Shown here: positions 44,033-45,472 of the stretch, piece after piece
How positions within the stretch are numbered: position 1 is the first letter of the stretch
How the letters are laid out: each line of letters opens with the position of its first letter
Source: Candidatus Poribacteria bacterium
GTDB lineage: Bacteria > Poribacteria > WGA-4E > WGA-3G
Direction of reading: 5' to 3'
NCBI GenBank assembly: GCA_965197475.1
Contig: CBDANF010000002.1
Location: forward strand, 992,001-1,056,000
Length of the DNA stretch: 64,000 nucleotides
The notes under the pieces: model-generated
Database searches by the model: none
What the model was told of the DNA's origin: nothing
What the model saw: only the letters and a program-made list of their open reading frames with translations
Made by a program: the position numbers and the translations under genes

Positions 44033-45472
44033 TTAAACTGTTCCACAATTTTTATATAAAGTACTCAGAAATTTCCCGATATCAGTGCCTTCACCTTTTC
44101 CATTTGCACTGCACATTTTTTCCCAAATTTTATTCAGTGCAGCAGGACGCAAAGGTTTCAATGTATCTGACGAGATAAGATTACCGCATTTCGTCAGGTC
44201 AAAACTATCAACTGCGTTAAGCGGATTGTCTTTTTTAGAATTCTGAACGTTAGCAAACCAAACCAAAAATTCCTCACAATAGTCCTTTACATTATTGAGT
44301 GAATTTTTTACATTGACATCTTTAAGCGAGATTCTGTTCCGCTTAAAGAAATCAATATACCATGGAGCATGAAATCCCAAAAGGTTTTTCTTAAGGATAT
44401 CATCAAGCATCGGTTTATAGATACTCAAATAAGCAAAAGAGAAGTTAGTTAACTGGCAAAGTTTAGACTGTATCTTTGTGCCATTTGCACCGTCAGGTAG
44501 GTCACTCCACTTATGTGGATTGTTAGCTCGATTTAATCTAAAATACTGAGCACCGTTATCTGCTGCAGGACTGTCTCCGAAGAAGTGGATTGCAGCTAAA
44601 GCTGCATAGAGTTCAATGAAGTGTTGGGAATTCCGCTGCTTCATTCCACCCAGAGAGAAATTTTCTTCTTTAATTTGAGAATCGTTACCAATGAGATAGA
44701 TGGCATTGTAAACAAGATCTTTATTCCATAGGTGATAATACTCAAGTGCCGCTTGTGTATTCATTAAGAAATGTTCAGCTTTTGCTTTGAGTTCATTTTT
44801 ATTATCTCCAGTATCGGTAAAAGTAAAATAAGGTAATACCAATGCCCCACCTATCTGTTCATTGACAGGTTTTGGTTTCAATTCACTCTTGATTAATTTT
44901 GCTATGGTAGGGAATCCAGATGCACCAGTACCACCAAAAATAGATCCTGCTAAAAAGATTTTTGGATTCGGATCTTTTTCAATCTTCACACGAAAAGTTT
45001 TCCACGGTTCGTCTTCTCCTAATACCGTTTGTGCCATAACCGATGCACCAATTGATGGATGACCACGAAAACCTTCATTTAACTTAGTGTCTCTTTCTTT
45101 TTCACTATATAGAACTTCAAATAAGTCAGCAGTATTGTCTTTTGCAAGCGTAAGGGCTGGAAAATTGAAAAAGCCAGATAAGTTAGGTTTATCATCATCC
45201 TGTTTATCAAACGGTGAAAAAATGGGGTTAGTGGCAGAATCTATTTTTGTTTGTAGCATACATGACTGTGAAAGTTGATTGTTATCATGAAATGCCTTAT
45301 AGTGATTCAAAGTTGTATTAGCGCGATCAAGACTACCGTTTGCATCGTCAGGATCAACAAAAAGTATGTAAAGATCGTCATTGTCAGGCATCATTCCTGC
45401 TGCGGCGAGATGTATCAAAGATTCAAGACATTTTGCACCTGTCCCACCTATACCGATAGCATAATATCCCAT
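44033..45472 (-). CDS. divergent tubulin/FtsZ superfamily GTPase (Tubulin_2 / FtsZ-like)
   Basis: IGIGGTG (T1), GF.G.P..G (T3), SIFGGTGASG (T4 signature), N..AAL (T6). Confidence 0.88.
   Translation of the reverse strand: MGYYAIGIGGTGAKCLESLIHLAAAGMMPDNDDLYILFVDPDDANGSLDRANTTLNHYKAFHDNNQLSQSCMLQTKIDSATNPIFSPFDKQDDDKPNLSGFFNFPALTLAKDNTADLFEVLYSEKERDTKLNEGFRGHPSIGASVMAQTVLGEDEPWKTFRVKIEKDPNPKIFLAGSIFGGTGASGFPTIAKLIKSELKPKPVNEQIGGALVLPYFTFTDTGDNKNELKAKAEHFLMNTQAALEYYHLWNKDLVYNAIYLIGNDSQIKEENFSLGGMKQRNSQHFIELYAALAAIHFFGDSPAADNGAQYFRLNRANNPHKWSDLPDGANGTKIQSKLCQLTNFSFAYLSIYKPMLDDILKKNLLGFHAPWYIDFFKRNRISLKDVNVKNSLNNVKDYCEEFLVWFANVQNSKKDNPLNAVDSFDLTKCGNLISSDTLKPLRPAALNKIWEKMCSANGKGEGTDIGKFLSTLYKNCGTV

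Follow-up and report, generated by a model that had tools for sequence, protein, structure and literature searches.

A short tubulin/FtsZ-superfamily protein without a recognizable T7 loop is encoded beside a predicted actin/Hsp70-fold ATPase in a patchily distributed, mobile gene cassette

The window analyzed here is a stretch of 64,000 nucleotides from a Candidatus Poribacteria bacterium (assembly GCA_965197475.1, contig CBDANF010000002.1, positions 992,001 to 1,056,000 of the forward strand), whose genome amounts to 5.7 Mb in three contigs. From window position 47398 down to position 35857, it contains eight open reading frames (ORFs), all of them on the minus strand and separated by short gaps, here referred to in this order as V, m, T, A, x, Z, O, and G (Table 1). 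The protein of central interest is T (contig 2, positions 1036042 to 1037472, in the genome-wide searches), which an initial annotation made from the letters alone had described as a divergent tubulin/FtsZ GTPase. We report here that T belongs to a family that retains the GTP-binding loops of this superfamily, that its T7 loop and C-terminal domain are not recognizable as those of FtsZ or tubulin, and that its gene is nearly always followed by that of A. Five full-length Poribacteria loci show the same eight-gene order, and the first four genes are present in one more locus, the sixth, on a short contig.

Table 1. Genes of the V-m-T-A-x-Z-O-G cluster and a possible promoter site (window positions; aa, amino acids; nt, nucleotides)
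Feature	Position	Strand	Description
V, predicted lipoprotein, 471 aa	45983..47398	-	Signal peptide; invariant Cys33 in an L-x-G-C context
m, small polytopic membrane protein, 156 aa	45497..45967	-	Three hydrophobic segments (Kyte-Doolittle); conserved just upstream of T
T, tubulin/FtsZ-superfamily predicted GTP-binding protein, 479 aa	44033..45472	-	Pfam Tubulin_2; no T7 motif; helical C-terminal domain (residues 332-478)
A, partner of T, 1000 aa	40845..43847	-	Predicted actin/Hsp70 (ASKHA) fold at residues ~470-880; N-terminal ~470 residues without an assigned fold
x, 336 aa	39814..40824	-	Two N-terminal hydrophobic segments; coiled-coil stretch; C-terminal domain without a family
Z, 713 aa	37611..39752	-	Three transmembrane segments; weak MotA/ExbB match; coiled-coil tail of ~400 residues
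O, MotB/ZorB-like protein, 244 aa	36802..37536	-	One N-terminal transmembrane segment with a preceding Asp16; C-terminal OmpA domain
G, exported protein, 312 aa	35857..36795	-	N-terminal signal-like segment; C-terminal transmembrane anchor; syntenic in Poribacteria loci
Sigma-70-like site, TTGACA-17-TATTAT	47493..47521	-	11/12, with a TG extension; best of the region, about 95 nt upstream of V

The reading frame of T is open throughout, and no transmembrane segment is predicted in its product. The sequence IGIGGTG starts at residue 6 (loop T1) and SIFGGTGASG at residue 177 (loop T4). T scores 38.6 bits against PF13809 (Tubulin_2; cut-off, 27), with only residues 163 to 241 aligned, and stays below the cut-off for PF00091 (Tubulin/FtsZ GTPase; 17.5 versus 33 bits); a genome-wide profile search identified it as the sole PF13809 locus of its genome. 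The initial annotation treated T as a one-off, a view that does not hold, since its relatives form 1869 clusters at 50% identity. These clusters come from an exhaustive search of 50%-identity representatives at an E value of ≤1e-3, with 1528 clusters left at ≤1e-10 and 540 at ≤1e-30, and a word-indexed search yielded 1479 proteins at an E value of ≤0.001 among 7999 scored candidates. The matching representatives are nearly all 480 to 540 aa long, and the T ORFs of 96 related loci, counting truncated ones, have a median length of 499.5 aa and reach at most 605 aa. All 120 listed relatives carry PF13809, their sole meaningful name is "hypothetical protein," and the cluster membership listing likewise gives no other name.

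We aligned 60 members of the T family, which share 30 to 79% identity with the query and of which 59 match PF13809 (E ≤ 0.01). Invariant in this alignment are G9, G10, and G12 in T1; G134-F135 and G142 at the T3 position; S177, F179, G180, G181, G183, and A184 in T4; and P214, Y215, and F216 at the T5 position, as well as Q279, W322, and W405. The superfamily loop signatures GIGGTG (residues 7 to 12) and FGGTGASG (residues 179 to 186) are thus present in T and invariant in the family, and the earlier statement that the GTP-binding loops are intact is borne out. The invariance of the T1, T4, and T5 residues indicates that the GTP pocket is under strong selection.

The AlphaFold2 model of T, for which the family alignment served as input, has a mean predicted local distance difference test (pLDDT) score of 90.4 and a predicted template modeling (pTM) score of 0.93. 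When this model was used in a structural search (VIA-align), the top 16 chains all belonged to the tubulin/FtsZ superfamily, with Z-scores of 15.4 to 11.6. They include FtsZ from Pseudomonas (2vaw; Z-score, 15.4; root mean square deviation [rmsd], 4.5; 202 residues aligned), CetZ2 (4b45; 15.3; rmsd, 3.5; 210 aligned), CetZ (3zid; 15.2), OdinTubulin (7evg; 15.1; rmsd, 3.3; 213 aligned), PhuZ (14.7), BtubA (14.3), alpha/beta-, gamma-, and Asgard tubulins (about 14), and three TubZ chains (13.5, 13.3, and 12.4). The first unrelated match was a designed protein with a Z-score of 9.8, followed by Rossmann-fold dehydrogenases. Foldseek agreed, but weakly (E value of about 3e-4; template modeling score, 0.22 to 0.37), and a structural look-up in BFVD returned distant PhuZ-type folds only. 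At the level of sequence profiles, little of this relationship is visible: the T profile found nothing meaningful among PDB sequences (best FtsZ match, E value of 9.9), and hhalign joined the T family to the FtsZ alignment of the phylum over 27 columns around T4 only (E value of 0.064), too little to support a superfamily tree. The initial annotation had proposed a comparison with PF13809 and, by structure, with known superfamily members as a check on its reading; PF13809 is passed, and FtsZ, CetZ, TubZ, and BtubA are among the top matches. Taken together, the PF13809 score, the 1869 clusters, and the structural ranking place T in the tubulin/FtsZ superfamily far beyond chance.

In tubulin/FtsZ GTP hydrolysis, the T7 loop of one subunit completes the active site of the next, giving rise to dynamic polymers, and in FtsZ this synergy loop has the motif N-x-D-F-A-D. 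Neither N-x-D-[FYLIVM]-x-[DE] nor [NG]-x-D-x-x-[DE] occurs anywhere in T. The structural matches span residues 1 to about 320 to 338 of the model, in which an H7-like helix (residues 285 to 299) is followed by a loop (residues 299 to 309), a short strand, and a W322-x-D324-x-P326 segment that is kept across the family. The loop occupies the place equivalent to T7; among the 60 relatives, neither its length nor its sequence is constant, and no acidic residue is conserved in it. Residues 332 to 478 are modeled as six helices where FtsZ and tubulin have a beta-rich C-terminal domain, and no FtsZ_C match was found in T with Pfam. The FtsZ consensus of the phylum contains NVDFAD at T7 and ends in the C-terminal peptide LDIPAFLR, and a DIPxFLR-type ending is absent from the C terminus of T (...KFLSTLYKNCGTV). 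The absence of a canonical T7 loop and of an FtsZ C-terminal peptide, as well as the distinct helical C terminus, had all been noted in the initial annotation and are upheld by these results. As judged by sequence, conservation, and secondary structure rather than by three-dimensional geometry, the T7 loop and the beta-rich domain of T are not recognizable. Two runs of a homodimer prediction with GTP and Mg gave an ipSAE of 0.00, a value that has no bearing either way on self-association.

That T is probably not the division FtsZ had also been proposed, and our data support this. A canonical ftsZ is present on contig 3 (positions 2028408 to 2029361; TIGR00065, 399.1 bits; cut-off, 295.2), a second FtsZ-domain gene on contig 2 (positions 687523 to 688515; TIGR00065, 302.4 bits) lies inside a 1435-aa open frame, and whole-genome searches with TIGR00065 and PF00091 did not match the T gene. 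A TIGR00065 ftsZ was found in 61/61 genomes of the phylum searched, and the T family occurs in only 25 of 176 (19 of the 133 of best quality), including 12/39 genomes of the host's own genus, 11/65 of a second genus, and 1/1 of a third. In the course of these searches, we observed FtsZ-domain frames of 1349 to 1454 aa in many genomes of the phylum, beside FtsZ-like frames of ~600 and ~412 aa; these sponge-associated bacteria hence have several FtsZ paralogues, one of them giant.

The most constant feature of the surroundings of T is the gene that follows it. For comparison, 80 metagenome loci and 10 loci from a viral-contig collection were fetched with the T family alignment, and their ORFs were scored with hidden Markov models (HMMs) of T, A, and V; as the loci were recruited through T and include near-duplicates, the linkage counts below are not independent samples. 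A lies directly downstream of T in 75 of the 79 loci with at least 500 nt of downstream sequence (genome loci, 6/6; metagenome loci, 60/64; viral-collection loci, 9/9), and the four loci without A comprise two that have m and T only and two short contigs. The link between T and a 1000-aa partner, already suspected from the window, is therefore strongly supported by gene order. V was found within 3 kb upstream of T in 58 of the 66 loci with enough flank (5/5, 46/52, and 7/9 of the genome, metagenome, and viral-collection loci, respectively), and m was found in 6/6 genome and 49/72 metagenome loci by phmmer, which is less sensitive than the HMMs.

Homologues of A in related loci are ~1000 to 1100 aa long. 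In the model of A (pLDDT, 86.3), residues ~470 to 880 match MreB (4cze) with a Z-score of 14.5 (rmsd, 3.6; 284 aligned), followed by BiP (13.6), BeeR (13.5), and FtsA (13.2) and by ParM, PilM, and Hsp110 (12 to 13), and Foldseek returned ASKHA matches with E values of about 1e-8. The residues of the phosphate-1 (D479 and G481) and phosphate-2 (D681, G683, and D688) motifs are invariant in 46 sequences. According to the model, residues ~470 to 880 of A are thus an actin/Hsp70-type ATPase domain. No named ASKHA family could be assigned, as Pfam matches stayed below the cut-off in 27 of the 28 relatives scanned; these showed only short MreB/FtsA matches at the phosphate-2 motif, and the MreB_Mbl cut-off was reached in one. 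SrfB was considered as a name for the N-terminal half of A (Atlas, 0.84; SrfB on 19% of one cluster) and dropped: a genome search with PF07520 at E ≤ 10 missed the A gene, and 0/28 relatives match.

All components of the cassette except T and A carry membrane or export signals. V contains a D67-A-S-A-S71 motif and a conserved T184-D185 pair; D67, S71, and D185, together with the lipoprotein cysteine, stand out in its sequence. This arrangement resembles the metal ion-dependent adhesion site (MIDAS) of vWA (von Willebrand factor A) domains, so that V may adopt a vWA fold. The Pfam VWA family matched neither V nor any of 42 relatives, the V profile found no vWA structure among PDB sequences, and Atlas clusters of V are named "hypothetical protein" only. 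Z reaches 19.2 bits against MotA_ExbB, below the cut-off of 22.9, whereas the peptidoglycan-binding OmpA domain of O (PF00691) is recognized at 43.4 bits versus a cut-off of 27.2; the architecture of the two proteins suggests a ZorAB-like stator pair. G has no family match, and none of the eight proteins contains a Walker A motif.

Downstream of A, the composition of the loci varies. The Z-O pair was found in 5/5 Poribacteria loci, in 9 of the 32 metagenome loci with at least 9 kb of downstream sequence, and in 0/7 viral-collection loci. The genes that follow A in other loci include Hsp70 plus tetratricopeptide repeat (TPR) proteins (three loci), a dynamin-like GTPase, TerD, and trypsin-like peptidases, and many encode proteins without a family. 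In three loci (L076, 9149 to 14709; L082, 14957 to 20358; and L085, 14964 to 20007), the genes downstream of T-A encode a bona fide Hsp70 (PF00012; E values of 1e-69 to 1e-88) and unassigned proteins, with TPR proteins also present in L076 and L082 and a Pfam-recognizable vWA protein in L085; a single cassette can therefore hold both the ASKHA partner and a true Hsp70. Trypsin-like serine peptidases were seen within a few kilobases of the cassette, on either side, in five loci (L033, L039, L048, L052, and L073) and dynamin-like GTPases in three (L059, L072, and L081); both are possible optional components.

With regard to transcription, no terminator-like site was found on the coding strand in the 185-nt gap between T and A. 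The sigma-70-like site listed in Table 1 is a possible operon promoter, and the total of such sites in the region does not exceed that of shuffled sequences. Four RNA libraries from three studies include short contigs that correspond to portions of V, m, T, and A, several of them with 0 to 2 differences; one such contig, of 220 nt, runs from the end of m into the start of T. The stretches that they leave uncovered carry no information, and we regard the contigs as a weak hint that the cassette is expressed.

The cassette is patchy and mobile in its distribution. By tblastn, it was found on a mobilizable plasmid (47.5 kb) from Gloeothece verrucosa PCC 7822, where T is annotated in RefSeq as "tubulin-like doman-containing protein" and the next gene, of 1118 aa, as "hypothetical protein." Three Picosynechococcus strains and [Synechococcus] sp. 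NIES-970 likewise have plasmids that match T by tblastn, as does a Prevotella record. A scan against PHROGs covered 5 of the 10 loci from the viral collection. In one (L095, 3 to 16147), genes for terminase, adaptor, baseplate-hub, portal, and minor-head proteins precede the cassette; contigs L096 and L098, outside the scanned set, have the same HMM-match coordinates for V, T, and A. In another, it follows a terminase, ParB-methyltransferases, and an invertase, and other loci show tail-fiber and methyltransferase neighbors, integrases and an excisionase bracketing the cassette, or adjacent replication genes. A predicted viral contig with the whole of V-m-T-A (L097, 47 to 21186) encodes a T of 600 aa and an A of 1504 aa. 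Three T queries had no match among the genomes of isolated phages (50,697 records); the viral contigs may therefore represent prophages, prophage edges, or other integrated elements.

In the window itself, the GC content is 0.355 to 0.389 across 38 to 48 kb versus 0.42 to 0.48 on either side, and an IS1595 transposase abuts the cluster (34606 to 35528, minus strand), split into overlapping ORFs for the zinc ribbon (35169 to 35528) and the DDE domain (34606 to 35268). An intact 307-aa copy of the IS1595 family lies at positions 10415 to 11335 (plus strand), and further transposase or integrase ORFs lie at positions 12279 to 13709. Next to the island, a 266-aa ORF (33685 to 34485, minus strand) has the C-terminal part of an N6/N4 DNA methylase and a weak match to a NACHT-associated inactive restriction endonuclease domain; it looks like the remnant of a restriction-modification or conflict gene. 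Beyond the upstream end of the cluster, a 627-aa ORF (48468 to 50351, plus strand) has no family above threshold and only a weak match to the N-terminal domain of the large subunit of T4-type terminases (E value of 8e-4; 19.5 versus 22 bits). Farther away, two NfeD-type proteins precede a tandem pair of FloA flotillin paralogues (458 and 470 bits) in a duplicated membrane-microdomain module (116 to 4206, plus strand), and 13 WD40 repeats (PF00400, 513 bits) make up nearly the whole of a 573-aa protein (57107 to 58825, minus strand), a eukaryote-like protein typical of sponge symbionts.

The identity and the linkage of T are far more secure than its function, for which anatomy and genomic context are the guides. 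On balance, we lean toward a partner-dependent, nucleotide-gated envelope module that probably serves in conflicts with phages or plasmids and that would represent a short, unnamed variant of the systems built around FtsZl1, a family defined by Makarova and Koonin in 2010 (PMC2875224). According to this proposal, T would keep the GTP-binding half of the fold (T1, a T3-like loop, T4, and T5) and would have lost T7 and the activation domain, with a helical domain instead. T and A would be two cytoplasmic NTPases, fixed partners in a cassette with the extracytoplasmic lipoprotein V and the membrane protein m, which in the host described here would be extended by the Z-O stator pair and by two more proteins, one in the membrane and one exported. 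It is conceivable that an envelope event is sensed by V and m, here possibly also by the stator pair, and relayed to T and A, which might respond by GTP- or ATP-dependent assembly or by conformational switching. As T lacks the canonical T7 route to self-activation, it would depend for any GTP hydrolysis on some other element, be it the W322-x-D324-x-P326 segment or A; in line with the initial annotation, we infer that T may be activated in trans by A and may act as a switch rather than as a filament. The likeliest role would be a mobile conflict function, such as antiphage defense or superinfection exclusion, with envelope remodeling as the alternative. A bolder version, in which V-m-T-A is a widespread mobile immune or superinfection-exclusion system whose T and A form an obligate heteroassembly, with GTPase activation in trans from A or from the W-x-D-x-P segment, and which in Poribacteria is wired to a Zorya-like, proton-driven envelope sensor, seems decidedly doubtful to us.

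A role in conflict is suggested by the patchy, mobile spread of the cassette, by its constant core with variable additions, by the ZorAB-like module in Poribacteria, and by the nearest described tubulin-vWA systems, which were predicted by Kaur et al. 2020 (PMC7159879) to be conflict systems. Several points weigh against this role or against other parts of the proposal. PADLOC matched none of T, A, V, and m; among the eight proteins, only Z (and, weakly, x) is matched, and the match of Z may be compositional. When 133 upstream flanking ORFs from 25 metagenome loci were searched with PADLOC, 16 had matches at E ≤ 1e-10, a count for which there is no control set; these matches concern generic domains only (kinase, ABC ATPase, trypsin, dynamin, AAA+, and TPR), and no complete known defense system was found among the 133 ORFs. 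The flanking genes are mostly housekeeping genes, metabolic or photosynthetic, with no clear defense-island signal. To this may be added the lack of a match between the three T queries and isolated phages, the vWA fold of V, which neither Pfam across 43 members nor a PDB sequence match confirms, the possibility that the RNA-library contigs stem from contaminating DNA, and the conserved D324, which could replace T7 and leave T a self-activating polymer; the T family is, moreover, known here from sequences and models, not from experiment. The evidence for the cassette as a defense system is therefore suggestive but not strong.

Alternatively, the cassette could be a housekeeping-type machine for membrane remodeling or envelope maintenance, in which T and A would form a cytoplasmic scaffold at the membrane and the MotA/OmpA pair would couple the proton motive force to the wall or outer membrane, with no part in conflict. 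The same was proposed for FtsZl1 with its vWA and OmpA neighbors (PMC2875224), and in that work MotA/TolQ/ExbB and OmpA genes lie beside FtsZl1 in Deinococcus and MotB-like genes in cyanobacteria. It is also in keeping with this proposal that every component save T and A has membrane or export signals and that known defense systems are not clearly enriched in the mostly housekeeping flanks. However, the cassette is patchy even within one genus (12/39 genomes), it resides on plasmids and on prophage-like or integrase-flanked contigs, and in the window it occupies a low-GC region adjoining a transposase, with downstream gene sets that vary among loci. Patchiness, mobility, low GC content, and variable genes are more readily explained by a mobile accessory trait than by a core function of the envelope, and we therefore consider a housekeeping machine to be a serious though unlikely candidate.

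The same mobile locations are compatible with a cytomotive role, in which T forms filaments through a noncanonical longitudinal contact and A serves as a tether or nucleator, as in a mobile analogue of FtsZ-FtsA that might position or partition an element. TubZ and PhuZ provide the precedent of plasmid and phage tubulins, and the cassette occurs on plasmids and phage-like contigs; all GTP-contacting loops of T are invariant, the conserved W322-x-D324-x-P326 segment after the H7-like helix could supply an acidic residue, and A matches filament-forming actins (MreB, BeeR, and ParM) and FtsA as well as Hsp70. We nevertheless find such a role quite improbable: the canonical activation domain and T7 are absent from T, partition would not call for a lipoprotein, small membrane protein, or stator pair, the conserved core showed no TubR-like gene for centromere binding, and the chromosomal copies of Poribacteria do not lie beside replication genes. 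The loss of T7 and the activating domain, together with a profile-profile similarity to FtsZ reduced to the T4 loop, could also be read as decay, with T being a degenerate, noncatalytic relic that serves as a GTP-binding or nucleotide-free scaffold, a structural subunit of a complex centered on A. Against this stand the very large size of the family and the residues at T1, T4, and the T5 position, which are invariant over 60 sequences at 30 to 79% identity; that the nucleotide loops are invariant in so divergent a family argues for selection on nucleotide binding and makes a relic highly improbable.

The interest of the T family lies in the combination of an invariant GTP pocket with an apparently discarded T7 loop and activation domain, nearly always beside an actin/Hsp70-fold ATPase. 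If T and A cooperate, they could provide a model for the regulation of a tubulin-fold GTPase without self-assembly or for the coassembly of bacterial tubulin-like and actin-like proteins, and activation in trans, if true, would be a new way of gating such a GTPase. The plasmid, prophage-like, and island locations and the ZorAB-like stator make the cassette a concrete candidate for a new envelope-linked conflict system, and the plasmid copies in cultivable cyanobacteria (Picosynechococcus and Gloeothece) make the question approachable at the bench.

Of the systems described previously, that of FtsZl1 is a close relative in composition. As defined in PMC2875224, FtsZl1 consists of an FtsZ-like domain at the N terminus, a long coiled coil, and an alpha-helical C-terminal domain, and its neighbors encode vWA, kinase, GTPase, and OmpA/MotB proteins, with MotA/TolQ/ExbB added in Deinococcus and MotB-like proteins in cyanobacteria. 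Similarly, T passes PF13809 and has T1 and T4, a T6-H7/T7 region that is not recognizable, and a C terminus unrelated to FtsZ or tubulin, and the cassette has a vWA-type motif in a protein encoded upstream, along with membrane proteins and genes of the MotA/ExbB and OmpA/MotB types. In contrast, every intact FtsZl1 with a listed length in the neighborhood table of PMC2875224 has 732 to 1393 aa, whereas the 479-aa T is compact, as its pTM score indicates, with no long coiled coil and with PF13809 covering no more than residues 163 to 241. V has no Pfam VWA match, and an ASKHA partner of ~1000 aa directly downstream is absent from the families listed in PMC2875224, in which a DnaK-like gene of 1626 aa lies three genes from FtsZl1 in a single Magnetospirillum operon.

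The DO-GTPase/GAP1 systems, as presented by Kaur et al. (PMC7159879), include tubulin and HSP70 themes and are read there as NTP-gated conflict systems; with the cassette they share tubulin-superfamily, vWA, membrane, and Hsp70-type parts and a constant core with variable additions. In the same paper, however, their tubulin and HSP70 themes do not overlap, whereas the tubulin-fold and ASKHA genes are adjacent here, and their hosts are mainly Firmicutes and Actinobacteria, whereas those of the cassette include Poribacteria and cyanobacteria. A TRAFAC DO-GTPase, which together with GAP1 makes up the defining core of those systems, was not seen either, the eight proteins having no Walker A motif and no Pfam or NCBIfam GTPase match. 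The likeness to Zorya lies in the three transmembrane segments, weak MotA/ExbB match, and coiled-coil tail of Z and in the single Asp-bearing transmembrane segment and OmpA domain of O. Z, however, scores only 23.3 bits against NCBIfam antiphage_ZorA_1 (cut-off, 190), its best PADLOC ZorA match (E value of 1.9e-11) falls on residues 432 to 669 of the coiled-coil tail, no equivalent of ZorC, -D, -E, -F, or -G was found with PADLOC, and the Z-O pair is optional (present in fewer than a third of the metagenome loci with sufficient flank).

With FtsZ, TubZ, PhuZ, and CetZ, T shares the fold of the N-terminal GTPase domain (Z-scores of 12.4 to 15.4), and it differs from them in that the T7 loop, the beta domain at the C terminus, and the tail peptide are all missing. 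Like TubZ and PhuZ, T is carried on mobile elements, and as in ftsA-ftsZ, genes for a tubulin-fold and an actin-fold protein lie side by side; A differs from FtsA in its size of 1000 aa and in its 470-residue N-terminal half with no assigned fold. In the work of Santana-Molina et al. 2023, Tubulin_2 proteins were set aside as too divergent, and we found no published description of this cassette in a search that did not extend to bioRxiv supplements and subscription journals. In summary, T represents a short and very large subfamily of a known family that has not been singled out in the literature searched, and its hallmark is the pairing with an ASKHA protein.

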